The translations under genes were made by a program, and so were the position numbers. A model generated the notes under the pieces. It was not told the DNA's origin. It saw only the letters and a list, made by a program, of their open reading frames with translations, and did not search any database. From assembly GCA_041484625.1 (NCBI GenBank), contig JBGPHY010000002.1:1-40250 (forward strand): a DNA stretch of 40,250 nt, in the 5' to 3' direction. Shown piece after piece: positions 3,496 to 27,021 of this stretch. The DNA is from Terriglobia bacterium. GTDB lineage: Bacteria > Acidobacteriota > Terriglobia > Versatilivoradales > Versatilivoraceae. Within the stretch, counting starts at the first letter, position 1. Each line of letters begins with the position of its first letter.

Positions 3496-4564
3496 GTGAA
3501 CTTGAGTCAGAAAACAGAGATCGGAATTGACCTCTTCAGCGATACGATGACCCGCCCCACCCGAGAGATGCGCCGGTTCATGTGCGATGCCGAAGTGGGA
3601 GATGAACAGAAAGGGGAAGATCCAACTGTTAACCGCTTGCAGGAGATGGTGGCGGAATTGCTCGGCAAAGAAACGGCCCTGTTTCTGCCTTCCGGAACCA
3701 TGTGTAACCAGATTTCCATCAAAGTGCATTGCCGTCCCGGGGACGAGGTTTTGCTTGACAAGACTGCCCACCCCCTCAACTCGGAGGCAGGGGGACCAGC
3801 GGTTCTGTCCGGGGTAATGGTTCGCGGGTTGGAGGGAGTTCACGGAGTATTCACAGGCGAGCAGTTAAAGTCAGCCATTCGTCCTATTAGCCGCTATCAG
3901 CCGAAGACTCGCCTGGTGTCGGTGGAGCAGACATCCAACCTGGGTGGGGGGGACCATCTGGCCGTTGCGGACTATCCAGGAGGTCTGCGGAGTCGCCCGG
4001 AGCTATAAGCTCTCTACTCATCTGGACGGGGCAAGGCTATTCAATGCGGTTGTGGCCAGCGGAATCAGTCCTCGGGAATATGCGGCAGGCTTTGACTCGG
4101 CCTGGATCGACCTGAGCAAGGGACTGGGGGCGCCCATTGGCGCGGTTCTGGCAGGGAGCCGGGATTTCATCCTGGAAGCCTGGCAGTGGAAGCAGCGCCT
4201 GGGAGGTGCCATGCGCCAGGCGGGAATCATCGCCGCCGCTGGCGTGTATGCCCTCGAGCATCACATTCACCGCCTGGCTGAAGACCATGCCAATGCCAGA
4301 TTCCTGGCCGAGGGCCTGGCTGAAATCCCGTGTCTCGGCGTCAGACCTCTGGAAGTCGATACCAACATCGTCATCGTGGATGTCTCCCTTTCCGGCTGGT
4401 CAGCCCAGGAGGTTTTGGACCGCGTGATGCTTCATAACCTCCGCATGAGCATCGTCGATCCCACTACCCTGCGAGCCGTCACACATCTGGATGTGTCCCG
4501 GGCGAATGTCGAGCAGGCTCTCACCATCATGAGGACCGTCTTGGCCAGTTCACCCGGGAAGTAG
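3496..4564 (+). pseudogene. ltaE: Low-specificity L-threonine aldolase, reading frame interrupted at a G7 homopolymer
   Basis: ORFs 3496..4008 and 3944..4564 are the N- and C-terminal halves of one threonine aldolase (FSDTMTRPT ... LPSGTMCNQ ... EQTSNLGGG | TIWPL ... HLDGARLFNA ... SKGLGAPIG). The frames switch at GGGGGGG, 3946-3952. Removing one G gives a continuous SNLGGGTIWPL. The start is GTG 3496 or TTG 3502. Confidence 0.8.
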
Positions 4565-4721: not shown

Positions 4722-4744
4722 CACTTTGATTTCCACGTACCCGG

Positions 4745-4908
4745 GGTGCATCCAGGTAATAGGGAAGTGGGTGAAATCCCCACACGATCGCGTCACTGTA
4801 TTCGGCGAGTCGCTTTCTCGTGGCAGTTCAGGCTGCCGGTCACTCTCGAGTGAGGGGAAGGCCTTGGAAGCGATGAAGACCCGTGAGTCAGGAAACCTGC
4901 CTCGGTAA
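4745..4908 (+). promoter_or_regulatory. Cobalamin (B12) riboswitch
   Basis: Conserved cores read directly from the sequence: AGGGAAGTGGGTGAAATCCCC, GCGTCACTGT, GCCGGTCACT ... GGGGAAGGC, and the B12 box GAGTCAGGAAACCTGCC (about 4884-4900). It lies in the 5' leader of a TonB receptor and BtuFCD-like genes. Boundaries are approximate. Confidence 0.85.
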
Positions 4909-5015
4909 GAAATCCAAAAAAAACCTTCGCGTCAAAGGGTAAATGACATTCTGCTTCTACTCCTCAACTGATTACCCCTCAGACGCCGCTTGGACTTTTC
5001 CAGGAGGCTTCCATT

Positions 5016-7199
5016 ATGTTTCGCATTCTCTCCCTGTTGTTATGGTCAGCCTTGGTGCCATCAGCTTTCGCCGGCAGCATTACCGGGAAGGTTGAAGACC
5101 CATCCGGTCTGCCAGTCCCTGGAGTTCGCCTGGTCCTGCTGACACCGCAAGGTTCTGCCGCGGGCAGGTCCAGTACCGACTTCCAGGGCCGTTACCGTTT
5201 TCGTAATTTGAGGCCAGGAACATACCGGATCTTCGTCAGAGAGGCCGGCTTCCAACAGCAGAACATCGAACTACAGTTGGAGAAAGAGCAAGATCTGCAG
5301 AGGGATATCCTCCTCAAGCTGGAATCGCTAGAGCAAGATGTGGTTGTCACGGCCACGCGGACCGAGGCCCCCACCAGTCTGTTGGGTGCCAGTGTCAGCG
5401 AGATATCCGGCATTGAGATCGAATCACGCCGTGCCACGAGCGTGGCGGAATTGTTGCGTGGTCTTCCCAGCGCGAATGTCAACCAGGTTGGCGGTCGCGG
5501 CAACGTGACCTCGCTGTTTGTGCGAGGCGGGGACTCCAGTTATAACAAGATCCTGGTGGACGGGATGCCTCTCAATCAGCCCGGTGGGGCAGTCGACCTC
5601 TCCAACCTTTCAGCCATAAACGTCGAGAGAATCGAGGTCGTTCGCGGCGCCCAGAGCGCGCTATACGGTTCGGATGCCATCTCCAGCGTTGTGCAGATTT
5701 TTACCAGTAAGGGAGACCGGGGAAAAACTCGCCCGGAGGGGAGTGTGTTCTTTGACGGAGGCTCCTATTCCAGCTTCCGGGGAGGGGCCGGCCTTTCCGG
5801 CGGAGTGGGGCCCCTCACATACAGTACCCAATTCCAGCATTTTGAGACCAACAACCGGGTCCCCAATGATTTCTTTCATGACGACAGTTTCAGCTCAAGG
5901 ATAGGCTTGGAGCCTTCCAGCAATTCCTCACTGGAATTTCTGGGTCGTTTCGATCGAGGCCGAACAGGCGTCCCGGGACCGACGGCCTTTGGTCCTGCAG
6001 ACCTGGATGCCTATTACCGAAAACGGGATTTCCTCGCCGGAGTTCGTTGGAACCAGCGGATTTCAGATGCCTGGAGTCAACGGGTAGCCTATTCCCAATC
6101 ATACATCAATCAATTGTCGGAGGACCCCGTTGCCTCTCCCCCCTTTATCCCTTCTTACCAGGGTCAAGTGGCGGCATTTCCTTATTACGATTTCACTTAT
6201 TCCTCCTTAAGTGCGACCCGACGGCATCTTTTGAATTATCAGAGCGACTTCGTCATCTCCACACACCTGCTCTCTGCCGGACTGGATTATGAGGAACAGC
6301 GGGGCACCCTGGGCGAAGTCCGCGCCCGCCGGACCAATCTCGGGTACTACGTGCAGGACCAGTATGTCCTCAAACAAAGGCTTTCCCTCACGGGAGGACT
6401 CCGCTTCGAGGACAATGGAAGTTACGGGTTCGCCGCGGTTCCGCGAGTCTCGGCGGCGGTAGTGTTACGGCGGGGCGATTCCAATGGCTGGTTGGGAATG
6501 ACAAGGCCCAAAGCAAACTTCGGATTGGGCATCCGGGAACCGAACTTTATTGAGTCCTTTAGCCAAAATCCCTACTTCCTGGGAAACCCACACTTGAAAC
6601 CGGAAAGGACTCGCAGCTTGGAAGTTGGCCTCGAGCAACACCTCCTGCGCGACAAGGTCCGGGCCGAGGTAAATCTCTTCTCGAGCCAATTTAATGACCT
6701 GATTTCCTACCAGATCACGGACTATTCAACCTACGAAGGTTCTTATTTCAACCTGGCCAGGAGCCGGGTCCGGGGAGTCGAGAACATCATCGAAGCCATG
6801 CCTGTCTCACAGGTGAGAGTGTCAGCAGGGTATACTTATTTGAATTCCAAAGTTCTCAAGAGCGCCAATCCGTTTGACCCTGTTTTTCAGGAGGGAGCCC
6901 GATTGCTTTTGCGCCCCTCCCATTCCGGGCATCTGGGCTTAATCTGGAGTGCCTCCCGCTGGCATTTGGGCACGACCGTGTTTCTCGTAGGGAACCGCGC
7001 AGCCAGCGATTTTGTGGGACTCGGCATGACCGAGGCCGCTGGATATGTGCGGGTCGACTGTTCGGGCAGCATCCAGATCAATTCGAGAGTCAGCTTCTAC
7101 TCCGCGTTTGAGAATCTTCTGAACCGGGAGTACGTCGAGGCACTCGGTTATCCGGCATTGAAATTCAACTTTCGTTCGGGGCTCCGGTTGAAAATTTGA
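5016..7199 (+). CDS. TonB-dependent outer-membrane receptor with N-terminal carboxypeptidase-regulatory-like domain (candidate corrinoid receptor)
   Basis: 727-aa ORF. GGAGG RBS before the ATG. Signal peptide MFRILSLLLWSALVPSAFA. Beta-sandwich region (GSITGKVEDPSGLPVPGVRLVL ... YRFRNLRPGTYRI). Plug domain (VVVTATRTEAP ... RGLPSANV), then a long barrel. Sits downstream of the B12 riboswitch. Confidence 0.9.
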   Translation: MFRILSLLLWSALVPSAFAGSITGKVEDPSGLPVPGVRLVLLTPQGSAAGRSSTDFQGRYRFRNLRPGTYRIFVREAGFQQQNIELQLEKEQDLQRDILLKLESLEQDVVVTATRTEAPTSLLGASVSEISGIEIESRRATSVAELLRGLPSANVNQVGGRGNVTSLFVRGGDSSYNKILVDGMPLNQPGGAVDLSNLSAINVERIEVVRGAQSALYGSDAISSVVQIFTSKGDRGKTRPEGSVFFDGGSYSSFRGGAGLSGGVGPLTYSTQFQHFETNNRVPNDFFHDDSFSSRIGLEPSSNSSLEFLGRFDRGRTGVPGPTAFGPADLDAYYRKRDFLAGVRWNQRISDAWSQRVAYSQSYINQLSEDPVASPPFIPSYQGQVAAFPYYDFTYSSLSATRRHLLNYQSDFVISTHLLSAGLDYEEQRGTLGEVRARRTNLGYYVQDQYVLKQRLSLTGGLRFEDNGSYGFAAVPRVSAAVVLRRGDSNGWLGMTRPKANFGLGIREPNFIESFSQNPYFLGNPHLKPERTRSLEVGLEQHLLRDKVRAEVNLFSSQFNDLISYQITDYSTYEGSYFNLARSRVRGVENIIEAMPVSQVRVSAGYTYLNSKVLKSANPFDPVFQEGARLLLRPSHSGHLGLIWSASRWHLGTTVFLVGNRAASDFVGLGMTEAAGYVRVDCSGSIQINSRVSFYSAFENLLNREYVEALGYPALKFNFRSGLRLKI

Positions 7200-8074
7200 T
7201 GAAGAAACTCCTGCTGGCCGTTGTTTTGGTTGCGGTGGGCCTGCTGATTTATCGGCAGGTCACGAGGAAAAGCCTGCCATCACTGTCTTCCAGTGAAGGG
7301 GTGCGAATTATCTCGCTGTCTCCCACACTGACTGAGGTCTTGTTCGAGTTGGGAGAGGGGGAGCGGATTGTGGGTGTTACCAATTACTGCACCTTTCCTC
7401 TTGAGGCAAGAGCAAAGGCAAAGGTGGGAGACCTGGTCAACCCGGATCTCGAGAGAATTGCCCAATTGCAACCCACCATCATCTTTGCCGAGCAATGGAG
7501 TTCCACCAAGATCGTGAGCCGCTTGAGAAACCTCGGTCTGAAAGTGACAGAAGTGCCCAGTCCGCGATCCATTGAGGAAATCTACCGGTTGATTGAATCG
7601 GTCGGCGAACAGGTGGGAAAGGCCGGGCGAGCCCGTGAGATTGTATCTGACATGAGTGCCCGCATTCTGGCCGTGAAGGAAAAGGCCGCGCGGTTCGAAC
7701 ATCATCCCACGATTTATATCGAGATTGATATTCCATCCTGGTCAGTCGGTCGCGCCAGTTACACCCATGAAGCCGTGACGCTATGCGGAGCACGCAACCT
7801 GTTGGAAGACGTCGACAAGCCGGCACTGCTGGTGTCCCAGGAAATCATCATTCAGCGCAATCCAGAAGTGATTCTGTCGTTTGAAGCCTCGGCCGAACAA
7901 ATTCGTAAACGGCCTGGATGGGGAGTGATCTCGGCAGTACAACGGGGCTGGATCATTGATCACTTCAACCGGGATCTCCTTTCCCGCGGCAACTTCAGGC
8001 TGGTGCAGGGAATGGAGGATTTCCAGTCCCGGTTGGAATCGCTGCTGAAGAAGAAGGCTCGGTCTTCACCATGA
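7199..8074 (+). CDS. Periplasmic substrate-binding protein, BtuF-like (cobalamin/siderophore class)
   Basis: ATG at 7199 overlaps the receptor stop (TGATG). N-terminal TM/signal. RIISLSPTLTEVLFELGEGERIVGVTNYC is typical of BtuF/FhuD-type binding proteins. Confidence 0.85.
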   Translation: MKKLLLAVVLVAVGLLIYRQVTRKSLPSLSSSEGVRIISLSPTLTEVLFELGEGERIVGVTNYCTFPLEARAKAKVGDLVNPDLERIAQLQPTIIFAEQWSSTKIVSRLRNLGLKVTEVPSPRSIEEIYRLIESVGEQVGKAGRAREIVSDMSARILAVKEKAARFEHHPTIYIEIDIPSWSVGRASYTHEAVTLCGARNLLEDVDKPALLVSQEIIIQRNPEVILSFEASAEQIRKRPGWGVISAVQRGWIIDHFNRDLLSRGNFRLVQGMEDFQSRLESLLKKKARSSP

Positions 8075-8125
8075 ACTGGCACATATGCAGATTCCAAGGA
8101 AATTCGTTCTCGTCGTGGGACTCTC

Positions 8126-9091
8126 ATGAAGAATAACCCGGCTTCGACTCTGAAATCAAAGCAACGTTTATTGTGGCTTTGGCTGGCGACCGTGGCCATC
8201 GCAATAATCGCTTTGTTCCTGGGCCCGGCCGGGATACCCGACCGAAACATCCTCCTGGCTGTTCGCCTTCCCCGGGTCCTGTTGGGATTGCTGGTGGGCA
8301 TGGGTCTGGCAGGGTCCGGAACAGTATTTCAGGGAGTCCTCCGGAATCCGCTGGCTGACCCCTTCATCCTGGGGACCTCCAGCGCGGCCACGGCCGGAGT
8401 CATGTTGGCCAATTTAACGGGCATCCGCAATTTCTACCTGCTGTATTTCATGGCACTCGGATTTGCTCTCCTGTCAATTACGATCGTCTACCAGATCTCT
8501 CGAATTGATGGGAAATCTCCCATTCAGACGATGGTGCTGGCCGGAGTCATTGTCAGCCTTTTCTTTAACGCACTGGTGTTCATCGTCTTTTCGATTTTAT
8601 ATCGGGAATCCTTCAACGTGCTGTTTTTTCTATTGGGGACGCTGACTGGGGGAGATCCTATGTTGATTGTCCTTTCAGCCATCCTCATCCTGCTGGGTTT
8701 TGGCGCGAGCTGGCTGCTCTCTCGAGAGCTGAACATTTTGACCCAGGGCGAAGAAACAGCCTTCCACCTGGGCGTCGACGTGGAGACCATAAAGAAAATC
8801 CTGTTTGTGGCGGCCTCGGCAATGACCAGGGCCGCTGTGGCTGTTGCCGGGATGATCGGCTTTGTAGGCTTGATTGTTCCTCACATGATGCGCATGATTG
8901 TGGGACCGGACCACCGCTACCTGATTCCCGCATCCGCCCTGGGAGGAGCGATCCTGCTGATTGTCACGGACGCCCTGGCCCGAACTCTCGCCCCTCCGCT
9001 GGAAATCCCGGTGGGGGCACTAACAGCCTTGCTGGGTGCGCCGTACTTCGTTTATTTGCTGCGCCAACGACAACGGGCTGGAGAGTTCTAA
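8126..9091 (+). CDS. FecCD-family ABC importer permease (BtuC-like)
   Basis: 321-aa polytopic membrane ORF with FecCD-type sequence (RLPRVLLGLLVG ... NPLADPFILGTSSGA-like ... GLIVPH). Its stop overlaps the next ATG (TAATG at 9089-9093). Confidence 0.9.
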   Translation: MKNNPASTLKSKQRLLWLWLATVAIAIIALFLGPAGIPDRNILLAVRLPRVLLGLLVGMGLAGSGTVFQGVLRNPLADPFILGTSSAATAGVMLANLTGIRNFYLLYFMALGFALLSITIVYQISRIDGKSPIQTMVLAGVIVSLFFNALVFIVFSILYRESFNVLFFLLGTLTGGDPMLIVLSAILILLGFGASWLLSRELNILTQGEETAFHLGVDVETIKKILFVAASAMTRAAVAVAGMIGFVGLIVPHMMRMIVGPDHRYLIPASALGGAILLIVTDALARTLAPPLEIPVGALTALLGAPYFVYLLRQRQRAGEF

Positions 9092-9867
9092 TGCTGCGGT
9101 TGGAGAACATCAGCTTTAGCTATCAAGACCAAGCGGTGATCCGGGATGTGAATGCAGAGATCCGGCAGGGGACGTTTCAGGCCCTGATCGGTCCCAACGG
9201 GTCGGGGAAAACGACCCTATTGCGGCTGATGAGCCGTGTGCTGGAACCGCAGAGAGGTAGGATCCTGCTGGATGGGGAGCCTCTCGGTCGAATGCGAGCG
9301 AGTGACATCGCCCGCAAGATTGCGGTGATTTCCTCGGAGCAATACTTCGAGTTTCCCTTCCTGGTTTCAGATGTGGTCGCCATGGGGCGTTATCCTCATC
9401 TCGCCCGGTTGCAGGCGCTTTCGCAGAAGGACCTGGAACTGGTGGAAGACGCCCTGCGAATGACCGATCTTGGCCCGTTGCGGAATCGTCCCATCTCCCA
9501 CCTCTCCAGTGGCGAACGACAGAGAGTCTTCATTGCCCGGGCCATTGCGCAGCAGCCCCGGGTCCTGATGCTGGATGAACCCAACGCCCATCTGGATGTT
9601 CACCACCAGAAGGCTGTCTTTGATCTCCTTCGGACGCTGCACCGAGATCATGGGATGACGGTTATTGCAGTCCTGCATGATTTGACCACCGCAGCGGCAT
9701 TTTGTGAGGTGGTTATGCTTTTGCACGAAGGGTGTGTTGTCAGGGTCGGCAGTCCCGCTGAGGTCATCACTCGAGACTCGATACGAGAGACGTACGGAGT
9801 CGAAGTGGAAATTTTCCCAAGTCCTGTGGGAGGATTTCCACTGGTGGTCTTTGGTCCCAGGGCCTGA
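9091..9867 (+). CDS. ABC importer ATP-binding protein (BtuD/FepC-like)
   Basis: Walker A GPNGSGKTT, signature LSSGERQRV, Walker B MLDEP, H-loop LHD. Confidence 0.92.
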   Translation: MLRLENISFSYQDQAVIRDVNAEIRQGTFQALIGPNGSGKTTLLRLMSRVLEPQRGRILLDGEPLGRMRASDIARKIAVISSEQYFEFPFLVSDVVAMGRYPHLARLQALSQKDLELVEDALRMTDLGPLRNRPISHLSSGERQRVFIARAIAQQPRVLMLDEPNAHLDVHHQKAVFDLLRTLHRDHGMTVIAVLHDLTTAAAFCEVVMLLHEGCVVRVGSPAEVITRDSIRETYGVEVEIFPSPVGGFPLVVFGPRA

Positions 9868-12556: not shown

Positions 12557-13372
12557 ATGACCAAGCCGAGAAAACTGGCAGTACTAGGTGCGGGGAAGAT
12601 GGGAGAGGCCCTGACTGCAGGGATACTGGACGGAGGCGCATTTCCCCCGGAGAGGGTCCTGGCAACCGACAAGAACGAAGAGCGTCTTGATTTGATGAAG
12701 GAAAAGTACAAGGTGGTCGTGACCAGCGATAACCGCAAGGCCGTGCGGGAGGCGGATCTCGTCCTGCTGGCGGTCAAACCCCAGGTGGTCCTGGAATTGC
12801 TGGAAGAGATCAGGGGAGAGGTTCGGAGCGATCAATTGGTCATCTCGATTGTGGCCTCTGTCACTACGACCTATATCGAGAGGATCCTGGGTGCGAAGAT
12901 TCCAGTGGTTCGGGCCATGCCGAACACGCCCTGTTTGATCCGGTCCGGCATGACTGCCCTCTGCAAAGGAACCTACGCTGAAGACCAGCATCTGAGGGAG
13001 GCCGAGAGGGTTTTTGCCGTGGTGGGTCGCACAGTAGTACTGGATGAACGGCACATGGATGCCGTCACGGGCTTGAGCGCCAGCGGCCCGGCTTTCATTT
13101 ACATCATCCTGGAATCGTTTGCCGAAGCTGGAGTCAAGCTGGGGCTGCCGAGATCCGTAGCTACGGAACTGGCTGCACAGATGACGCTAGGGGCCGCCAA
13201 GATGGTGCTGGACACAAAGGAACACCCGGCCCTGCTCAAAGACAACGTCACCACGCCGGCCGGGTGCACTATCGATGGGATCCTGGAACTCGAGGAAGGC
13301 AAGCTGCGGGTGACGTTAATCAAGGCAGTAGTAAAGGCAGCTCAACGGGCTGCCGAATTGCTCGAAACCTGA
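12557..13372 (+). CDS. proC: Pyrroline-5-carboxylate reductase
   Basis: KLAVLGAGKMGEAL Rossmann motif and C-terminal P5CR dimerisation region (VTTPAGCTIDGILELEEG). ATG 12557 is preferred over the track start 12515 because a GAAAGGGAG RBS lies just upstream. Confidence 0.9.
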   Translation: MTKPRKLAVLGAGKMGEALTAGILDGGAFPPERVLATDKNEERLDLMKEKYKVVVTSDNRKAVREADLVLLAVKPQVVLELLEEIRGEVRSDQLVISIVASVTTTYIERILGAKIPVVRAMPNTPCLIRSGMTALCKGTYAEDQHLREAERVFAVVGRTVVLDERHMDAVTGLSASGPAFIYIILESFAEAGVKLGLPRSVATELAAQMTLGAAKMVLDTKEHPALLKDNVTTPAGCTIDGILELEEGKLRVTLIKAVVKAAQRAAELLET

Positions 13373-13512
13373 GAGGCATTGGGACTCCACACTCCGCAGT
13401 CTTCCCAGGGCATAAGCCTGTCGAAAAATCCCCTCCTCCGACCCAATGAAACTCGAGAGAGCCAACCAGCGACTCCAGATTTTCACCATCCACCTGCTCC
13501 GCAAAGAGGCAG

Positions 13513-13788
13513 CTATCCGCCAGCAATGGCCGGGATAATGGAGACCTCATCCGATTCCTTGACCGGCGTGTCTAGATTTTGCAGGAATCGGATGTCCTCC
13601 TCGTTGACAAAGATGTTGACGAAGCGGCGGACCCGGCCATCAGCCTCGCAGATCCGGTCTCTCACTCCCGGGTGCTGTTTCTCAATGTCGTTGATGATAT
13701 CTTGGACAGACTTCCCGCTGGCCGTGACGACTTCCTGACCACTAGTCAAGGAACGCAACTGAACGGGTATTCGAACCTGAATTGACAT
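13513..13788 (-). CDS. MoaD/ThiS/CysO-type ubiquitin-like sulfur-carrier protein with C-terminal Gly-Gly
   Basis: 91 aa counted from MSIQVRIP. It ends ...EVSIIPAIAGG followed directly by the stop. The internal RFVNIFVNEEDIRF closely resembles CysO-type carriers as I recall them. Last gene of the riboswitch-led operon. Confidence 0.8.
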   Translation of the reverse strand: MSIQVRIPVQLRSLTSGQEVVTASGKSVQDIINDIEKQHPGVRDRICEADGRVRRFVNIFVNEEDIRFLQNLDTPVKESDEVSIIPAIAGG

Positions 13789-13853
13789 TCGACCTCTCCT
13801 CAATTTAAGAAGATTGCAGACTCCTTCAAGTGGGGCTGACCCGCCGGTTGCCC

Positions 13854-14936
13854 CTAGGATTTCTTCCTCAAAAGCCCTTTAGCGATCAATAATTCCGCAT
13901 TTAAAATGGCAGCCCCTGCCGCCCCGCGAATGGTGTTGTGGCCTAGTACGTTGAACTTGTAGTCAAAAATAGGACACTCGCGGATGCGGCCCACCACCGT
14001 AGCCATCCCCTTTTCAATATCCCGGTCCAGGCGTGGCTGAGGGCGATCCCTCCCCTCGACGATGACAACAGGGTGCGTCGGGGCGCTGGGGAGTTTCAGC
14101 TTCTGGGGGATCGAGCTGTATTCCCTGAAGGCCGCGATCAGTGCTTCCACGGAGGGACGGCGCTTCATGCTTACCGATACTGCCTCCAGATGACCGTCCA
14201 GGACATTGACCCGATGGCAGTGGGCACTGATCTTGAAATTGGCCAGCAGAACCTTTCCATCCTGTAACTTTCCCAGAATCTTTCGGGGCTCGATCTCAAC
14301 TTTCTCTTCTTCTACGTCAATGTAAGGAACCACGTTGTCGATAATATCCAGGCTGGCCACACCGGGGTAACCGGCTCCGGACAGTGCCTGCATTGTCACG
14401 ACGTGAACAGTCTCCAGCCCGAATTCCCGGTGCAGGGGAGCCAGTGCCAGAACCATGGCCATAGCGGTGCAATTGGGGTTGGTGACAATATACCCGTCAT
14501 GGTATCCCTGATTCTTTTTCTGAAGAGGCAGGAGATCCAGGTGCTCATGGTTGATTTCGGGAACCAACAAGGGCACATCCTCATCCATGCGATGGTTCTT
14601 GGAATTGCTTAGTGCCGGGTAGCCGGCCTTGGCAAAGGCAGTTTCAACCTTCCCGGCAATGTTGGAGGGCAGCCCCGAGAAGACAAAGTCGCAGTCCAGT
14701 GGAGGGGCGCACTCTCTCACCACCAGGTTCCGGGCATATTCAGGAATCCGTCCGGAGATTTTCCATGTGCAAGTTTGATGATAGAGCTTTCCTTCCGAAC
14801 GATCTGAGGCGGCGATGTCACCTACTTCGATCCAGGGGTGGTTCTCCAAGAGTTGGATGAACCGCTGGCCCACTGTGCCAGTGGCGCCTAGAATTCCTGC
14901 TTTGAGTTTCTGTTTCATCTTTTTAAGATACCTCAC
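13854..14936 (-). CDS. asd: Aspartate-semialdehyde dehydrogenase
   Basis: KAGILGATGTVGQRF NAD(P) motif and active-site NPNCTA. Length and sequence fit the archaeal/fungal-type Asd. The start is uncertain: GTG 14936 or ATG 14918. Confidence 0.9.
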   Translation of the reverse strand: MRYLKKMKQKLKAGILGATGTVGQRFIQLLENHPWIEVGDIAASDRSEGKLYHQTCTWKISGRIPEYARNLVVRECAPPLDCDFVFSGLPSNIAGKVETAFAKAGYPALSNSKNHRMDEDVPLLVPEINHEHLDLLPLQKKNQGYHDGYIVTNPNCTAMAMVLALAPLHREFGLETVHVVTMQALSGAGYPGVASLDIIDNVVPYIDVEEEKVEIEPRKILGKLQDGKVLLANFKISAHCHRVNVLDGHLEAVSVSMKRRPSVEALIAAFREYSSIPQKLKLPSAPTHPVVIVEGRDRPQPRLDRDIEKGMATVVGRIRECPIFDYKFNVLGHNTIRGAAGAAILNAELLIAKGLLRKKS

Positions 14937-14954
14937 ACTCCGGCTGTACTCACT

Positions 14955-16127
14955 TCATCCGGCTGCGATTTCCTTCAGAGCAACGACGCAGCGATCAATC
15001 TCCTCTTCAGTATTGAAAAAGCCTGCGCTAATACGGATCGCACCATCGGGGAATGTCCCCAGGCTCCGATGTGCGTAAGGGGCACAGTGCAGGCCCGGGC
15101 GCACGGCGATGTGAAAGGCTTCGTCCAGGATGGCCCCGGCTTCGGGTGCAGTGTATCCTGCCACCGTGAGCGTCAGGGTGGCGACCCTTCGGTTCAGATC
15201 CTGGCTGCCATAAAGTTGAAAACGGGGATCGTCTTTCAAAGCCTCAATCAGGCGCCCTAGCAAGCGGGTTTCGTGTCCTTGAATTCTGGCCAGTGTCTCC
15301 TCCACCACAAACTCTACCCCCGCCCTAAGACCGGCAATCCCAACGGTGTTCGGGGTTCCTCCCTCCAACCGGTACGGCAGTTCTCCCGGTTGCACGGGGC
15401 TTGAGGAATCACCACCGGTACCACCTTCACGCCAGGCCGACAAACTGGAACGTTCTCCGACAACCAGGACACCCACCCCGGTGGGGCCCAGCATGGCCTT
15501 ATGTCCAGGCAGTGCCAGAAGGTCGATTTGGTCCTCTTCCATCTGAATGGGAAGCACACCGGCCGTCTGCGCCGCATCCACAAGAAAAAGGAGGTCGTGC
15601 TCGCGAGCGATTTTTGCGACTTCCCGAATGGGCTGAACAGTACCCAAAACGTTGGAGGCGTGGGTCAGGACGATCAAGCGGGTACGGGGACTAATGGCTT
15701 TTTCAATGTCGCCGGGGTCGATGAACCCAGCCTGTGAAAAGGGAACTTGCGTCAACGTAATCCTTCCGTCCTGTTCCAGTTGCTTCAATGGACGGGAAAC
15801 AGAATTGTGTTCGAGGAGCGAGGTAATGACGTGGTCTCCGTCTTTCACCGTTCCTTTGATTCCAATGTTCAACGAGTCGGTGGTGTTGAGAGTGAAAATG
15901 ACTCGATGAGGGGAGGAAATCCCGAAAAACTGTGCCAGCAACACACGCGTTTCCTCAATGGACTTCTCAGCCCTTACGGCCATTCGATGTCCGGCACGCC
16001 CGGGATTGGCTCCATCGGTCCGCAGAAAATCAGCGAGTGCCGAATACACGGACTCAGGCTTGGGGTAACTGGTGGCCGCATTGTCGAGATACAGAATGTC
16101 AGACCTCAAATGTCCTCCACAAAACAC
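14955..16127 (-). CDS. Class V aminotransferase, cysteine desulfurase family
   Basis: LYLDNAATSYPKP at the N-terminus, PLP-lysine context LPGHKAMLGPTGVG, active-site cysteine context RPGLHCAPYAH. The start is GTG 16127, or TTG 16109 preceded by GGAGG. Confidence 0.85.
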   Translation of the reverse strand: MFCGGHLRSDILYLDNAATSYPKPESVYSALADFLRTDGANPGRAGHRMAVRAEKSIEETRVLLAQFFGISSPHRVIFTLNTTDSLNIGIKGTVKDGDHVITSLLEHNSVSRPLKQLEQDGRITLTQVPFSQAGFIDPGDIEKAISPRTRLIVLTHASNVLGTVQPIREVAKIAREHDLLFLVDAAQTAGVLPIQMEEDQIDLLALPGHKAMLGPTGVGVLVVGERSSLSAWREGGTGGDSSSPVQPGELPYRLEGGTPNTVGIAGLRAGVEFVVEETLARIQGHETRLLGRLIEALKDDPRFQLYGSQDLNRRVATLTLTVAGYTAPEAGAILDEAFHIAVRPGLHCAPYAHRSLGTFPDGAIRISAGFFNTEEEIDRCVVALKEIAAG

Positions 16128-16277
16128 GAAACATCAACCCTGATCCGAGACACAAGGGCCGAGCGGCTATCCACACAGGGAAGGGTAGCGGTGCCGGATC
16201 CAAAATGGGATATCGGCCCAAGGGTAAGCCAATTGATCATGGCTGCTTCTGCTTTCGCTTGGCCCTATGCCCCACTC

Positions 16278-17312
16278 TCACGCCCCCACATATTTGGCAT
16301 AAACGGAGCGCGCGACATTGGGATCCTTGGTGCCCTTCACGATGCCGCGACCGTCGGGAAACACCGCAATTTCGTAGGCATCGACCTCAAACTTCAAAAG
16401 GAACTTGTTGAAATGAACCACTCCCAGCGGTTTCAACCGGTGTGCCAAGTGTTCAAAGTCCAGTTGATGTCCTCCCGACTGGTTGATCTGCACGGAATTA
16501 CGGCCGCACAGGGTGGTGACGGTTGATCCTTCTTTCCCTTCCAGGAATTCGTACCGCCCCATTTTGCAGACTGGACACTCTCCCTGCTCCTTGGCGCTGG
16601 CAATTTCAAAGCGCTTCCAGGAGTTCTCCCACACATCGAAGTAGATCATCTTACGGTTAATCCGGTGCAGATTCCCGGTCAAGATCTTCAGGGCCTCGGC
16701 CACCTGAATAGAGGCGATAATGTTCACAATCGAGGCCAGGACACCGGCAGTGTCACAGGTGGGTGACATCCCTGGAGGAGGCATTGTCTCGAAAATACAA
16801 CGCAAACAAGGGGTCTCGTGAGGAATGACGGTCATCGAGAGTCCGTAGCTTCCCACTGAAGCCCCATAGATCCAGGGCTTCCGATGTTTGACCGCCACAT
16901 CGTTCAGAAGAAAACGGGTCTCGAAGTTGTCGGTCGCGTCCAAAATAAGGTCGACCCCCTCGACTAGGGACTCAATATTCTTGTAGTTGACATCGGCCAC
17001 CAATGCATCTACGGTTACTTGGGAGTTGATCTGTCGAAGCCGTTTCTGAGCTGCCACGGCCTTGGGCAAACCCGCCTGGACATCCTCTTCGGAAAAGAGC
17101 GTCTGCCGCTGAAGGTTGCTTTCCTCGATGAAATCCCGATCGACAATGCGAAGGAACCCGACCCCTGCCCGGCACAAGGCATCGGCTTGAACTGTCCCGA
17201 GGGCCCCGCAGCCGAGAATTGCCACTTTGCTTTGCACCAGCTTGAGTTGTCCGCTTTCCCCGATTTCAGGAAAGAGCATTTGCCGGGAGTATCTTTCAAT
17301 TTGTGAGGGCAT
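16278..17312 (-). CDS. ThiF/MoeB/HesA-family E1-like adenylyltransferase with C-terminal extension
   Basis: RYSRQMLF, GCGALG nucleotide loop, DRDFIEESNLQRQ, two CxxC pairs (CLRC, CPVC), and a ~100-aa C-terminal domain (LCGRNSVQI ... FPDGRGIVKGTKD) like Firmicute ThiF-type proteins rather than a rhodanese. ATG 17312 is preferred; the track start 17417 is a TTG that adds a low-complexity extension. Confidence 0.85.
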   Translation of the reverse strand: MPSQIERYSRQMLFPEIGESGQLKLVQSKVAILGCGALGTVQADALCRAGVGFLRIVDRDFIEESNLQRQTLFSEEDVQAGLPKAVAAQKRLRQINSQVTVDALVADVNYKNIESLVEGVDLILDATDNFETRFLLNDVAVKHRKPWIYGASVGSYGLSMTVIPHETPCLRCIFETMPPPGMSPTCDTAGVLASIVNIIASIQVAEALKILTGNLHRINRKMIYFDVWENSWKRFEIASAKEQGECPVCKMGRYEFLEGKEGSTVTTLCGRNSVQINQSGGHQLDFEHLAHRLKPLGVVHFNKFLLKFEVDAYEIAVFPDGRGIVKGTKDPNVARSVYAKYVGA

Positions 17313-17439
17313 AGCGTCCTGTTTAAACGTCCACCTGCTGTGGCTATAGGGAATCGAAGAATCGGAGATGCGGAGAATTGGGGAAATGGAAGCGCCCCCG
17401 GCAGCTTCAGAGTACAAACTTACCGTTCTTCTCTCGCAT

Positions 17440-18729
17440 TCACTCGAGTCCGGTCAATGGCGAAACGAGCCCTTCAAACTCGCTGAGTCTGGCACTGATG
17501 ACTTGCGGGCGCGCCAGGTGGTCTTGAATTGCTTCCTGGGTTTTCAATCCGTTGCCGGTAACAGAAATGACGGTCACCTCGTCGGACAGGATTCTGCCTT
17601 GCTGAACCAGCTTCTGAGTGACCGCCACAGTCACGCCTCCAGCCGTTTCCGTGAAGATTCCTTCATCTTCGGCGAGCATACGGATTCCCGCAACGATCTC
17701 CTCATCCGACACGTCTTCACCCCAACCGCCGGATTCCGTCATGGCCTTGATGGCGTAATAACCGTCTGCAGGGTTACCAATGGCAATCGATTTTGCAATG
17801 GTTTGAGGTTTGACCGGTTTGATGAAATCACGTCCGGATTTTATTGCCGTGGTGATCGGAGAACATCCTGTCGCCTGGGCCCCAAAAACTTTGCAGTGGC
17901 CTTCGGCAACTAGGCCCAGCTTTTCCAGCTCGAGAAAAGACTTTCGGATTTTGGTAATCAGTGAACCACCGGCCATAGGGGAGACCACACAATCCGGAAT
18001 TCGCCAGCCGAGTTGTTCAGCGATCTCGTATCCAAAGCTCTTGGAGCCTTCGGCATAGAATGGGCGGAGATTGATATTGACGAATCCCCACCGGTACTTC
18101 ATGGAGATTTCGCTGCAAAGCCGGTTGACATCGTCGTAATTCCCATCCACCCCGATGACATGGGTCTGGTAGACCATCGTTCCTAGAATCTTTCCAAGTT
18201 CCAGATCGGCTGGGATGAAAATGTAACTGCGCAGGCCGACACTGGCGGCGTTGGCGGCCACCGAGTTCGCCAGGTTGCCGGTAGAGGCGCAACCAACGGT
18301 GTCAAATCCAAACTCCAGGGCCTTGGAAAGGGCCACTGAAACCACACGGTCCTTAAAGGACAAGGTCGGGAAACAAACGCTGTCGTTCTTGATGTAAAGA
18401 TTTTTCACTCCAAGTCTTCGCGCGAGATTCGTCGCCTTGACCAGGGGAGTGAACCCCACTTGCCTACCCACGGTCGCCTCCCCATCCAGGGGGAGGAGTT
18501 CCCGGTACCGCCACATGTTGGGAGGTCGGCTTTCGATCAGTGCCCGGGTAAGCGTTTTTTTCAGGAAGTCGTAATCATAGATGACCTCCAAGGGGCCAAA
18601 ACAGTACTCGCAGACCGAAAGCGGGGCCTTTGGGTATTGCCTCTCGCATTCCCGACACTGGAGCCCGGAAACGCAAGAGCTTTGTATATTGCTATCCGCG
18701 TTGCGGATCTTATTCGGCGAAGTGGCCAT
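17440..18729 (-). CDS. Threonine-synthase-family fold-type-II PLP enzyme with N-terminal zinc ribbon (candidate thiocarboxylate-dependent homocysteine synthase)
   Basis: 429-aa ORF. CRECERQYPKAPLSVCEYC zinc ribbon. PLP-lysine motif PTLSFKDR. ThrC-like body. First gene after the SAM-I riboswitch. Confidence 0.85.
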   Translation of the reverse strand: MATSPNKIRNADSNIQSSCVSGLQCRECERQYPKAPLSVCEYCFGPLEVIYDYDFLKKTLTRALIESRPPNMWRYRELLPLDGEATVGRQVGFTPLVKATNLARRLGVKNLYIKNDSVCFPTLSFKDRVVSVALSKALEFGFDTVGCASTGNLANSVAANAASVGLRSYIFIPADLELGKILGTMVYQTHVIGVDGNYDDVNRLCSEISMKYRWGFVNINLRPFYAEGSKSFGYEIAEQLGWRIPDCVVSPMAGGSLITKIRKSFLELEKLGLVAEGHCKVFGAQATGCSPITTAIKSGRDFIKPVKPQTIAKSIAIGNPADGYYAIKAMTESGGWGEDVSDEEIVAGIRMLAEDEGIFTETAGGVTVAVTQKLVQQGRILSDEVTVISVTGNGLKTQEAIQDHLARPQVISARLSEFEGLVSPLTGLE

Positions 18730-18757
18730 TGGTTTTTCCCATGGGGGTTCGATGCTT

Positions 18758-18786
18758 AAAAAAAAACCTCTTCAATAAGAAGAGGT
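18758..18786 (-). terminator. Intrinsic terminator forming the SAM-I riboswitch expression platform
   Basis: The minus strand reads ACCTCTTC-TTATT-GAAGAGGT followed by nine T (A-run 18758-18766 on the plus strand). The 5' arm CCTCTTCTTAT can instead pair with the 3' P1 strand GATAAGAAAAGG, giving an antiterminator. Confidence 0.8.
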
Positions 18787-18802
18787 CTTGGATATCATCC
18801 TT

Positions 18803-18907
18803 TTCTTATCTGTCAGAAACACTCTTCTGCAGGAGTTGGCACCTTCCCGCTGCGGGGGGTTGCCGTGGTTTCAAAGGGCCGGTCCCTCAACCACTCTCGA
18901 TAAGAAG
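18803..18907 (-). promoter_or_regulatory. SAM-I (S-box) riboswitch aptamer
   Basis: The minus strand reads CTTCTTATCGAGAGTGGTTGAGGGACCGGCCCTTTGAAACCACGGCAACCCCCCGCAGCGGGAAGGTGCCAACTCCTGCAGAAGAGTGTTTCTGACAGATAAGAA. This carries P1 TTCTTATC/GATAAGAA, the GAGGGA kink-turn region, GGCCC ... GAAACC ... GGCAACC, AAGGTGCCAA-TCCTGC, and P4 CAGAA/TTCTG. Confidence 0.9.
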
Positions 18908-18930
18908 TACTATTCAATTGTCAATCGGAA

Positions 18931-18958
18931 ATTATACTGGGGTTGGCGTGAATGTCAA
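18931..18958 (-). promoter_or_regulatory. Consensus sigma70-type promoter driving the SAM-I leader
   Basis: Minus strand TTGACA (18958-18953), 16-nt spacer, TATAAT (18936-18931), about 25 nt upstream of riboswitch P1. Confidence 0.65.
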
Positions 18959-19200
18959 GGCTTAAGCGCCTAAAGGAAGGGGTGGAGCAGTTTCCAGGGG
19001 AGATAATCGTAGGACGGTAATGTCAGTCGCCTGATTTTGACGTTTCATCGGGAAAACCTGAGAAGTTATCGCCCCTGCAATAAAAGCGGCATTCCACCGG
19101 CGATACCAATCCATGCGCGCGTCAGTTCTAAAGTTTCGTTCGATTTCCGTCGAGATTAAGGAGAGTGAGTTATAATTGAAGCGCGCAGCCAAACAGGCCT

Positions 19201-20652
19201 ATGACCAACAGAAACGCGAAGCAGGGCTACTCCCTCCTGACGATCCTTTTCCTGGTTTCTTCTTTTCTTCCCGGCAGTGCTCTTTCAACCGGGGACACGC
19301 GCCAGACAGTGTTCCCTTCCAGTTCCTCGCCGGAGGAGAGTGGTTCAGGCAAGTCCGCAAGTAAATCAAGAACCAAGAAGAAACGACACAGCCGATTGCG
19401 GGTCACGAAGGTGAGGGTGCCTCGAAACCTGAAGCCCATGCCCGCCTTAGTTGAGACCCCATTTCCCTCGGAAGTAGCACTGTTGAAAGTGGTCGAGAGC
19501 GCCAAATCCCGCCTGGAAAATGAAAAGGTCACCTACTTTGCAGGCTCTAAGAAGAAACAGGCGCGGCGGGAAATCAAGCTGGCACTGGCCAACTTCAAGA
19601 CCGGGGACATCCAGGTAGCGAGCGGAGTTGAGGAGAAAAACCAGTTGATTCTGGATGACCCTCAGATTCGGTACCAGGTCGCCTGGTGGAATGGCTTTAA
19701 CTCATCCATCGACATCCTAGATCCGCCCAACTGCGGTGTAGTGGCGATGCTTTATGCTCTTGACCCCAAGCGGCAAAGCTTTTTTGGTCAGGATGCGATC
19801 ATTTATACTCCCTACTCGAGTGCCCTGCTGCAGCCGGAACTGGTTGAGGCCGGCAAAGGCTACCTGATGGGCAAAATCCGACAGGCCCGGCAGGAATTAG
19901 ACAAGGTTCAGTCGAAATCCACCCCCGGCAAGTCCCTGGCAGTCAGCTCCATCTTCACAGATGAAGATTATTTCAATCTCATTCTTGCCGAGCAGATGGA
20001 CCCCGGACGATTCCGCTCAATCGTCGGAGATGAAACGGAATTCTCCCAGGATCAGGAACTCCAGTTGGTGCGCCTGGCAGAGCGCATCCTGGTAATCGTG
20101 GGAGCCAACCAGGAAGACGCTTACTCGTTTACCGGGAACTATGCCAGTGCCCGAGGCATTACCCAGTTCACCCCGTCCGGTATGAGCGCGGTTTGGGGAA
20201 TGTATCCTGATGCGGGAATTTCTCGCAGTTTCAAGGAAGCCACCGGCAATCATGTCAGCGCCATCAAAGCGGAAATCTGTCTGCTGGATTTCTACCTGGC
20301 GGAACTGGCCGGCGAACATCCCATCTTAATAGGATCGGGATTTGAGAAATACGCTTCAGGCGCCTCTTACAATGGCGGTCCGAAGCGGGTTCATTACGGT
20401 CTGGGAAAATTCGGCGTGGAGTGGCTCAATCCCCAGTCTCGTCTCAAGGAGCTTGCTCACAAGTCGCCGCTAAACCGGGAGGAGCGCCTCGAATACCAGT
20501 GGCTCAAACGGTATAAGGCCCACGAGACTTACGTTTACCTCAACAAGATGCACGCTCTCGAGAGCCTTCAGGTCAAGTTGGAACTGCGTCACCTGACTGA
20601 GAATTCCCTCGAACCTGGCGCCAACAATACTAATACCTCCCTGCCTCGCTAG
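19201..20652 (+). CDS. Secreted hypothetical protein with a divergent SLT-like (lytic transglycosylase) region
   Basis: Signal peptide (LLTILFLVSSFLPGSALS), then a Ser/Lys/Arg-rich linker. Residues NQEDAYSF ... ASARGITQFTPSG ... ASGASYNGGPKRV parallel the SLT motifs E-S, AxGLMQ and AYNAG. Confidence 0.6.
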   Translation: MTNRNAKQGYSLLTILFLVSSFLPGSALSTGDTRQTVFPSSSSPEESGSGKSASKSRTKKKRHSRLRVTKVRVPRNLKPMPALVETPFPSEVALLKVVESAKSRLENEKVTYFAGSKKKQARREIKLALANFKTGDIQVASGVEEKNQLILDDPQIRYQVAWWNGFNSSIDILDPPNCGVVAMLYALDPKRQSFFGQDAIIYTPYSSALLQPELVEAGKGYLMGKIRQARQELDKVQSKSTPGKSLAVSSIFTDEDYFNLILAEQMDPGRFRSIVGDETEFSQDQELQLVRLAERILVIVGANQEDAYSFTGNYASARGITQFTPSGMSAVWGMYPDAGISRSFKEATGNHVSAIKAEICLLDFYLAELAGEHPILIGSGFEKYASGASYNGGPKRVHYGLGKFGVEWLNPQSRLKELAHKSPLNREERLEYQWLKRYKAHETYVYLNKMHALESLQVKLELRHLTENSLEPGANNTNTSLPR

Positions 20653-25789: not shown

Positions 25790-25980
25790 ACTTCAAGCAC
25801 TCCGATATGAGTTCGGACCCCATTATAGCTCATGGAGGAGGATTCTTTGAAATCTTCCAGGAGATCCACCCTCAGCATGTGTTATATTTTCTGCTCTTTG
25901 CTGACGCGAGGAGTTCGCGGCTCAACAGATAACAATTGAAGGCTGAAAGCCTATTCAGTAAGCTACGAACAGGAGTCTCC

Positions 25981-27021
25981 ATGTTCAAAACCTTGGAGTG
26001 GACCGAAGACGGACTTCGCATGATTGATCAACGGAAATTGCCTGGAGAGGAGGTTTATCCCGTCTTTCGGACCTATCAGGAAGTGGCGCAAGCCATCAAG
26101 GACATGGTAGTGCGAGGCGCCCCAGCGATCGGAGTGGCTGCCGCGATGGGGGTTGCCTTGGGGGTCAAGCAAATTCGCGAGTCTGACCCCGAGCGCTTTG
26201 AAAAGAAGTTCTTGGAAATCTGTAACACGCTTGCCGCCACCCGTCCCACAGCCGTCAATCTCTTTTGGGCTCTGGAGCGGATGAAGAAGGTTTTCTACAA
26301 GGGGCTTGAGGGCAAACCATTAGCCGAACTCCAGGAGATCCTGAAGGCAGAAGCCCTCCAGATATACCGAGAGGATATCGAGTTAAACCGGCAGATGGGC
26401 CGCTTCGGCGCCAGCCTGATTCCGGACCGGGCCACCGTGTTGACCCACTGCAACGCAGGGGCACTGGCCACTGCGGGATATGGGACGGCACTGGGGGTGA
26501 TTCGCGCGGCTATTGAGCAAGGAAAGACGTTGCATATTTATGCGGATGAGACCCGGCCTTTCCTTCAAGGGGCTCGCCTGACAGCCTGGGAACTCCAGAA
26601 GGACAAAATCCCAGTGACGCTGATCACCGACAATATGGCTAGGCATTTCATGAAGTCTGCCAGGATCGATTGCGTACTAGTGGGTGCTGACCGCATTGCC
26701 GCCAACGGTGATGTGGCCAATAAGATCGGGACCTACACAGTGGCTGTGCTGGCCAAGGAAAATGAAGTTCCCTTCTACGTGGCAGCTCCACTTTCCACAC
26801 TGGATCTCAGCTTGTCTTCGGGAGACCAGATTCCTATCGAGCAGCGGCCGGCATCTGAAGTCACTCACATTCAACAGACCCGCATTGCCCCCGACGGAGT
26901 GGAGGTGGCAAACCCGGCCTTCGACGTGACTCCCGCCCGCTATGTGACCGCCATCATTACGGAGAAAGGAATTGCCCATCCGCCTTATTTGGAAAGCTTG
27001 AAAGCGCTCTCCCAAAGTTAA
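25981..27021 (+). CDS. mtnA: S-methyl-5-thioribose-1-phosphate isomerase (methionine salvage)
   Basis: [60 protein letters not shown] 25981 is preferred over the TTG track start 25936. Confidence 0.9.

Follow-up and report, generated by a model that had tools for sequence, protein, structure and literature searches.

A SAM-I riboswitch-controlled operon of a Terriglobia bacterium that probably encodes homocysteine synthesis of the MetM/MetO type

We propose that a five-gene operon on contig JBGPHY010000002.1 of the Terriglobia bacterium assembly GCA_041484625.1 (Acidobacteriota) probably encodes a homocysteine synthesis system of the MetM/MetO type, repressed by S-adenosylmethionine (SAM) and dependent on a protein thiocarboxylate for its sulfur. 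The window that we analyzed is a 40-kb stretch making up the entire contig, and related genomes were read within ±10 kb of the locus. Open reading frame (ORF) listing and profile searches revealed five minus-strand ORFs running in one direction from 13513 to 18729 behind a SAM-I leader, which encode, in 5' to 3' order, a ThrC-like pyridoxal phosphate (PLP) enzyme, a ThiF-type E1, a cysteine desulfurase, an aspartate-semialdehyde dehydrogenase (asd), and a carrier ending in Gly-Gly (GG). The core of the system (SAM riboswitch, ThrC-like enzyme, and GG carrier) is already known as the MetM/MetO pathway, because it has every testable defining feature of that pathway, the central idea of which was published in 2024. 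The novelty lies in the accessory set: an E1 that lacks a rhodanese domain and has a Cys-bearing C-terminal domain, a dedicated TIGR01977 desulfurase, and asd.

An earlier note on this DNA, made from the sequence alone, had read the operon as a protein-thiocarboxylate homocysteine module, and every point of that reading that was open to testing here held. The five co-directional genes it described were all found where it had placed them, the gaps that it gave as 18–150 nt were computed as 127, 150, 18, and 65 nt with the E1 start at 17312, and the products matched Pfam and TIGRFAM models of the expected families. The single SAM-I leader that it saw ahead of the genes was recovered with the Rfam model RF00162, and the promoter at 18958–18931 was the sole promoter-like site in the ~6 kb scanned (13200–19300); the five genes are presumably co-transcribed. 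A Streptomyces route through MetM and MetO, which the note had mentioned, exists as well (Hasebe et al. 2024, as presented in PMC12172450 and bioRxiv 10.1101/2024.10.14.618325).

The leader matched RF00162 across the full model (positions 1–108; E 2e-22 in the Rfam search), and it combines a full-length aptamer scoring above the gathering threshold with an expression platform, as expected of a SAM-I riboswitch. Its minimum free energy fold consists of a four-way junction and the terminator, with a z score of −4.2 relative to shuffled sequences, and the start codon of the ThrC-like gene follows 25 nt past the U9 tract. The 5' arm of the terminator, CCUCUUCUUAU, and the 3' strand of P1, AUAAGAAAAGG, match as complements with a single mismatch and might pair to form an antiterminator. 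This complementarity points to the classical S-box switching arrangement, a reading of the leader that is well supported. At high SAM the aptamer would lock P1, the 11-bp/U9 terminator would form, and transcription would end before the first gene; at low SAM the 3' strand of P1 would pair with the 5' arm of the terminator, and the five genes would be read through. The same terminator element, CTCTTCTTATCGAAGAGG-T8, also lies 3' of the aptamer in two related genomes (L001 and L002).

Table 1 Coordinates of the leader elements and genes of the operon within the window
Feature	Coordinates	Strand	Basis
Sigma-70-type promoter, TTGACA-16 nt-TATAAT	18931..18958	-	12/12 consensus matches
SAM-I (S-box) riboswitch aptamer	18803..18906	-	RF00162, 97.2 bits vs gathering 44.4
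Expression platform: intrinsic terminator, 11-bp stem + U9 tail	18755..18789	-	Hairpin read + fold
MetM-like homocysteine synthase candidate, ThrC-fold PLP enzyme	17440..18729	-	429 aa; PALP PF00291, 214 bits
ThiF/MoeB-type E1 adenylyltransferase, rhodanese-less	16278..17312	-	344 aa; PF00899, 259 bits
Cysteine desulfurase, class V aminotransferase	14955..16127	-	TIGR01977, 450 bits vs cutoff 377
Aspartate-semialdehyde dehydrogenase, archaeal-type (asd_EA)	13854..14936	-	TIGR00978, 449 bits vs cutoff 301
MetO-like sulfur-carrier protein, beta-grasp	13513..13788	-	91 aa; PF02597, 64 bits, ThiS family

The product of the first gene passes the TIGR00260 (thrC) model (274 bits vs cutoff 167) and contains PTLSFKDR at residue 121, its PLP lysine, Lys126, aligning with Lys61 of ThrC, which identifies it as a protein of the ThrC fold; the S-T-G-N loop is retained along with the lysine. 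All homologues that we saw are named threonine synthase in databases. We compared the locus with 80 homologous loci from species-representative genomes, to which 7 further loci were added later (numbered here with the prefix L). In a neighbor-joining tree built on 345 columns with 100 bootstraps, a MetM-like clade (100/100) holding the window protein, a SAM-I-linked protein of Nonomuraea, and 28 carrier-linked homologues sampled from the set stood apart from a clade of canonical ThrCs (100/100). This agrees with the earlier note, which had suggested building such a phylogeny and had read the protein as part of a homocysteine synthase system. Identity is at least 50% within the carrier-linked group and at least 54% within the canonical ThrCs, as against 28–40% between the groups. 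The window enzyme is 57–77% identical to its carrier-linked homologues and 32–38% identical to solved ThrCs, the best of which it matches with 187 bits. In 14 of the 80 loci (Nitrospirota and unclassified metagenome-assembled genomes, MAGs), second tblastn hits revealed another ThrC paralogue 0.6–1 kb downstream of the ThrC-like gene. The one in L016 is a real thrC, since it scores 492 bits against Aquifex ThrC and can be aligned over its full length with four solved bacterial ThrCs. Thus the window protein passes the profile cutoff for thrC but belongs to a separate, paralogous clade and scores 187 bits where the L016 paralogue scores 492. Judged by its sequence, it is not a threonine synthase in the canonical sense.

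The two clades are also separated by their residues. At about 31 columns the groups have different residues, each conserved to at least 90% within its own group; these include, in T. thermophilus ThrC numbering, T88L, S155N, N157R, R160Y, G190S, N191L, W249G, and D323T. Around 20 signature residues are common to all carrier-linked proteins and absent from canonical ThrC as well as from the ThrC-like proteins of haloarchaea and Chlorohelix, and the window enzyme bears the signature of its clade (L88, N155, R157, Y160, S190, K194, D248, G249, and T323). Several of these positions, we assume, line the phosphate/substrate pocket of T. thermophilus ThrC. The sequence motifs quoted in the earlier note are all present, with the exception that the two cysteine pairs of the N-terminal zinc ribbon (C25/C28 and C40/C43) are spaced CxxC-x11-CxxC instead of the x13 that it gave. 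This ribbon occurs in 78 of 81 family members. We considered it as a MetM-specific marker and rejected it, because the haloarchaeal and Chlorohelix ThrC-like proteins (35–39% identity) carry the ribbon too while having neither a carrier neighbor nor the clade signature.

We linked the window enzyme to the characterized MetM by way of an actinomycete proxy and published identities, which strongly indicate that the two are orthologous. The proxy, Nonomuraea gerenzanensis, has a SAM-I riboswitch (68.7 bits, Rfam) followed by a MetM-like gene and a 91-aa carrier ending AVAGG-stop, and its MetM-like protein is 53.7% identical to the window enzyme. Cyanobacterial homologues are ~60% identical to the window enzyme, and PMC12172450 gives an identity of 51.6% between S. 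albulus MetM and a cyanobacterial homologue whose gene adjoins a metO-like gene. Another route to the Streptomyces protein, through the locus L080, was abandoned, as the contig is cyanobacterial and the search returned cyanobacteria only. L080 is labelled an Actinomycetota MAG, yet its protein is 94% identical to that of Kamptonema, so the contig looks mis-binned. The Nonomuraea sequence (L081, NZ_LT559118.1, 11.85 Mb) is listed in PLSDB as a plasmid with 10 annotated features and appears to be the chromosome; its SAM-I–metM-like–metO-like locus (5816–7506) is unannotated.

The carrier, which the earlier note had described as a beta-grasp protein, is a ThiS-family ORF whose C-terminus reads AIAGG, with GG immediately before the stop codon as in MetM/MetO carriers. 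Its closest solved structures are the CysO chains 4n6e_B (3e-21) and 3dwg_C (2e-20), from complexes with BexX and CysM. CysO-type carriers deliver sulfide to other enzymes. The carrier is 46% identical to the one downstream of the Nonomuraea MetM-like gene and passes the SAMP1 model narrowly (62.3 vs 60).

Linkage between enzyme and carrier is conserved far beyond the window. In 78 of the 80 loci the ThrC-like gene has a gene for a 90-aa ThiS-family carrier downstream, directly adjacent in most, and these carriers are 37–71% identical to that of the window. The carrier-linked loci span Acidobacteriota, Nitrospirota, Nitrospinota, Thermodesulfobacteriota, Cyanobacteria, Armatimonadota, Chloroflexota, Planctomycetota, Methylomirabilota/NC10, Aquificota, and Elusimicrobiota. 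Using a covariance model made from seven aptamers, we found that SAM-I directly precedes the ThrC-like gene in 13 of the 80 loci and in each of the 7 added later; together these belong to Acidobacteriota, Planctomycetota, Thermodesulfobacteriota, Methylomirabilota/NC10, and Actinomycetota. The complete five-gene set behind RF00162, whose co-occurrence the earlier note had suggested looking for, recurs in other Acidobacteriota: an Acidobacteriia genome with an E1 59% identical to that of the window has SAM-I, PALP, ThiF, Aminotran_5, Asd, and ThiS in the same order. The closest relatives of the window are Terriglobia such as Candidatus Versatilivorator. The locus L001 carries the label Acidimicrobiia and looks mis-binned, given its 80% identity to the window operon; its E1 is split in two frames and its desulfurase is absent.

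Of the accessory proteins, the E1 differs from known types in its C-terminal part. The longest ORF of this gene spans 16278–17417, but the true start is most likely the ATG at 17312, giving 344 aa, because the gene call P0241 on the contig and the lengths of nearly all homologues agree on it. The protein has GCGALG at residue 34, CLRC at 169, CPVC at 246, and a crossover-loop cysteine in PTCDTAG, and it scores 404 bits against NF009123, below the cutoff of 510. In an AF2 model (pLDDT 87.9) the core resembles E. coli ThiF (TMt 0.92, 35% identity), and residues ~255–344 (16278–16580) are predicted to form an extra α/β domain. This domain had no Pfam match and is clearly not a rhodanese domain. 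A separate model of it (pLDDT 79.6) gave no Foldseek match at E ≤0.001, the only similarity being weak half-fold matches of a TBP-like kind at E 0.05–0.3; we rejected this fold as a functional clue because the matches are weak and the full model matched the ThiF core only. Cys269, in an LCGR motif, is invariant among 65 E1 homologues, along with other residues of the domain. The homologues are 56–89% identical to the window E1, nearly all 344 aa long, and come from Acidobacteriota and Planctomycetota.

The desulfurase contains GHK, with the PLP lysine, at residue 208 and RPGLHCAP, with the catalytic cysteine, at 343, and among solved structures it comes nearest to SufS-type desulfurases (E 1e-56). 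The asd product has the active-site NPNC motif, and its gene occupies the same operon position in L001–L003 and L082/L083. Among Planctomycetota, a member of the Gemmataceae (L084) has SAM-I, PALP, a 114-aa ORF, ThiS, and ThiF, and a member of the Phycisphaerae (L086) has SAM-I, PALP, ThiS, NIL, a 217-aa ORF, ThiF, and Aminotran_5. The co-occurrence of these genes in differing orders across two phyla argues that the E1, and often the desulfurase too, are partners specific to the MetM/MetO pair. The 114-aa and 217-aa ORFs (L084, 7267–7611; L086, 7283–7978), inside these SAM-I-controlled MetM/MetO/E1 clusters, are unannotated and had no Pfam match.

We clustered all ORFs around the 80 loci to count recurrent neighbors, taking the count for thrC from the tblastn second hits instead. 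The neighbors included MoeB-type E1 (21 loci), CysK/M-like proteins (14), Prok-JAB/JAMM proteins (10), and TusA (9), as well as homoserine dehydrogenase (hom; 6), aspartate kinase (4), asd (4), and canonical thrC (14). Eight loci have a neighbor resembling cofactor-independent phosphoglycerate mutase, which we regard as a candidate for a HomK-type homoserine kinase, a type discussed in GapMind 2026. In 41 of the 80 loci, a stand-alone NIL-domain protein (PF09383; ~80 aa, and 178 aa in Phycisphaerae) is encoded beside the MetM-like/MetO-like pair, as at L022 2045–2287 and L086 6561–7097; such genes occur in the set L004–L067 and in neither the window nor L001–L003. The NIL protein may be an unrecognized component shared with the DUF39/NIL-ferredoxin route to homocysteine.

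Comparison with characterized systems sets the operon closest to that of S. albulus, the source for which is Hasebe et al. 2024 (Appl Environ Microbiol 90:e01247-24, as cited in PMC12172450). According to Appendix 4 of bioRxiv 10.1101/2024.10.14.618325, MetM uses MetO-thiocarboxylate to make homocysteine from O-phosphohomoserine, and its annotation as threonine synthase is a frequent error; a SAM riboswitch lies upstream of S. albulus metM, as stated in PMC12172450. The window operon shares with that system a PLP enzyme homologous to ThrC, a CysO-like carrier ending in GG, the upstream SAM riboswitch, and the threonine synthase annotation, and the likeness extends to the 100%-bootstrap clade and signature residues held in common with an actinomycete SAM-I–metM–metO locus. 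Unlike Streptomyces, in which activation is ascribed to MoeZ (a rhodanese E1) and Mec (a JAMM hydrolase), both encoded elsewhere, the window operon includes an E1 without rhodanese, a TIGR01977 desulfurase, and asd. The MoeZ-type E1 and Mec-type hydrolase that GapMind 2026 lists do not appear in the window, where the E1 is rhodanese-less and no JAMM gene is present; given that Streptomyces encodes both apart from the pair, their absence from the window leaves room for them elsewhere in the genome.

The operon also has counterparts among other thiocarboxylate systems. In the CysO/CysM/MoeZ/Mec+ system of M. tuberculosis, which contains the closest solved relative of the carrier, a carrier thiocarboxylate likewise supplies the sulfide for a PLP enzyme whose substrate is an O-phospho amino acid, but that enzyme is of the CysM beta-replacement type, converts O-phosphoserine to cysteine, and is not under SAM control. 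In Wolinella succinogenes, homocysteine is made by HcyS/HcyF/HcyD/MetY (Krishnamoorthy & Begley 2011, as cited in PMC5764234); the sulfur comes from a protein thiocarboxylate and a dedicated E1 lies in the same cluster, as in the window, but the enzyme is MetY (fold type I), acting on O-acetylhomoserine, and the carrier needs C-terminal processing by the JAMM protease HcyD. The window carrier, in contrast, already ends in GG, and the window has no JAMM gene. With canonical ThrC (PDB 1uim, 2zsj, 6cgq, and 2d1f) the window enzyme shares the fold, the SFKDR lysine motif, the S-T-G-N loop, and probably the substrate O-phosphohomoserine, and it differs in its extra N-terminal zinc ribbon, ~20 invariant substitutions, and linkage to a carrier and a SAM riboswitch. 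The E1 resembles those of the ThiF/ThiS and MoeB/MoaD systems in its P-loop, two CxxC zinc pairs, crossover-loop cysteine, and ThiF-superposing core, but has a further C-terminal domain of ~90 residues, and it is encoded together with a homocysteine synthase candidate and a desulfurase rather than with thiazole or molybdopterin synthase genes.

Given these parallels, we suggest the following sequence of reactions. The E1 would adenylate the C-terminal Gly-Gly of the 91-aa carrier, and the persulfide that the desulfurase forms from cysteine would pass to the carrier acyl-adenylate to give a carrier thiocarboxylate (carrier-COSH), possibly relayed through the crossover-loop cysteine of the E1 or through Cys269 in its C-terminal domain, a domain that occupies the position of the rhodanese domain in other E1s. 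The ThrC-like enzyme would then eliminate phosphate from O-phosphohomoserine and add the thiocarboxylate sulfur at C-gamma, and homocysteine would be freed by hydrolysis of the carrier adduct. We infer this flow of sulfur, from cysteine through desulfurase, E1, and carrier-COSH to homocysteine, by analogy with ThiF/ThiS, MoeZ/CysO, and HcyF/HcyS; its net effect would be a transfer of cysteine sulfur to homocysteine without cystathionine. For the carbon substrate, the gene-neighborhood evidence leans towards O-phosphohomoserine: the hom, aspartate kinase, HomK-like, and thrC neighbors produce or consume this compound, which fits the published substrate and would explain asd as a gene of the aspartate branch under SAM control. 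When methionine and SAM run short, the asd product would increase the supply of aspartate-semialdehyde for making homoserine and O-phosphohomoserine.

Several points weigh against this reading. Its tie to the characterized MetM is indirect, running through the actinomycete proxy and published identities, and any role given to the C-terminal domain of the E1 is speculative. Release of the amino acid from the carrier falls to a JAMM hydrolase in both the CysO and the HcyS system. Pfam and tblastn searches found no JAMM/Mec-type hydrolase in the 40-kb window, compared with one in each of 10 related loci. Nor was a homoserine dehydrogenase or homoserine kinase found in the window, so that a supply of O-phosphohomoserine has to be assumed. 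Finally, a Microcystis homologue was reported to show threonine synthase and deaminase activities in vitro (PMC12172450), and by analogy the window enzyme may have residual or dual ThrC/deaminase activity. As a tentative elaboration, which we consider possible though rather unlikely, the Acidobacteriota and in part the Planctomycetota may have a self-contained variant of the pathway. In it the TIGR01977 desulfurase would load its persulfide on Cys269 in the C-terminal domain of the E1, this domain would take the place of the rhodanese domain in MoeZ-type enzymes, release would be JAMM-free, and synthesis would bypass cystathionine, with the NIL protein as a shared component in the wider family. 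Tblastn and Pfam searches of the window yielded no TusA or NIL gene.

The alternative that fares best, and that we still regard as improbable, is that the first gene encodes an ordinary or bifunctional threonine synthase and that the carrier, E1, and desulfurase serve some other thiolation, such as that of thiamin, molybdopterin, tRNA (2-thiolation), or a SAMP-like process. Its score above the TIGR00260 equivalog cutoff, the name threonine synthase given to homologues everywhere, the conserved PLP lysine and S-T-G-N loop, and the activities of the Microcystis protein would all be expected of such an enzyme, and the narrow SAMP1 match would suit such a carrier. However, the genes that SAM riboswitches govern are those of methionine and SAM, not those of threonine; 14 loci have a canonical thrC next to the homologue, and solved ThrCs are only 32–38% identical to the window enzyme; positions conserved in ThrC are invariantly changed in the clade (T88L, R160Y, and W249G among them); and the carrier is linked in 78 of 80 loci. 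None of the partners of the thiG/thiH, moaE, or ttuA type was found in the window.

Slightly more improbable still is a synthesis of homocysteine from aspartate semialdehyde or another non-phosphorylated intermediate derived from aspartate, as in the DUF39/NIL-ferredoxin route. This would account for asd in an operon that has no hom or thrB: asd is kept in the operons of Acidobacteriota, no hom or homoserine kinase gene lies in the window, and NIL proteins, a component of that route (PMC5764234), are found in 41 of the 80 related loci. However, a Pfam scan and a tblastn search with a NIL query detected no DUF39/COG1900, ferredoxin-NIL, or NIL gene among the window ORFs, which makes the route unlikely here. 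In addition, the ThrC scaffold is kept, related loci adjoin thrC, hom, aspartate kinase, and the HomK-like gene, and the characterized MetM, as described in bioRxiv 10.1101/2024.10.14.618325, uses O-phosphohomoserine. The least probable alternative is a cysteine module in the manner of CysO/CysM, in which carrier-COSH and O-phosphoserine would give cysteine, as the nearness of the carrier to 3dwg_C and 4n6e_B and the presence of CysK/CysM-like genes in 14 and JAMM genes in 10 related loci might suggest, but the PLP enzyme has the ThrC (gamma-elimination) fold and not that of CysM, the CysK/M-like gene, where found, is additional to the ThrC-like gene, control is by SAM, asd points to the aspartate/homoserine branch, and the sulfur would come from a cysteine desulfurase, so that making cysteine from cysteine would be futile.

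Methionine synthesis is still a gap in many genome reconstructions, and recognition of homocysteine synthesis of the MetM/MetO type would correct auxotrophy predictions in Acidobacteriota, Nitrospirota, Cyanobacteria, Aquificota, and other groups. The pair is present in at least nine phyla and SAM-I-controlled in at least five. The enzyme is uniformly annotated as threonine synthase, and PGAP-type models would label the carrier as MoaD/SAMP1 and the E1 as ThiF/MoeB. Price et al. 2018 (PMC5764234) counted Aquifex aeolicus among organisms without a known homocysteine pathway; one of our loci, L056 (Hydrogenothermaceae), belongs to the same phylum. As a compact set of five genes, the acidobacterial operon would lend itself to reconstituting the passage of sulfur from cysteine to homocysteine, and it includes an E1 with an uncharacterized Cys-bearing domain.

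Other parts of the window contain a few further features. An IF-2B-family, MtnA-like methylthioribose-1-phosphate isomerase of methionine salvage is encoded on the plus strand at 25936–27021, 7 kb from the operon. On the other side of the operon, some 4 kb away, a B12-regulated uptake operon occupies 4727–9867 (+); its cobalamin riboswitch (RF00174, 75.5 bits) stands ahead of genes for a TonB-dependent receptor, a periplasmic binding protein, a FecCD permease, and an ABC ATPase. At 3496–4008 and 3944–4564 (+), two ORFs that overlap in different frames match positions 1–146 and 141–286 of Beta_elim_lyase; they are one threonine-aldolase-like gene that a frameshift has split, whether as a pseudogene or through an error of assembly. 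Divergent from the promoter region of the operon, a 483-aa ORF at 19201–20652 (+) had no Pfam match and begins with an N-terminal hydrophobic segment.

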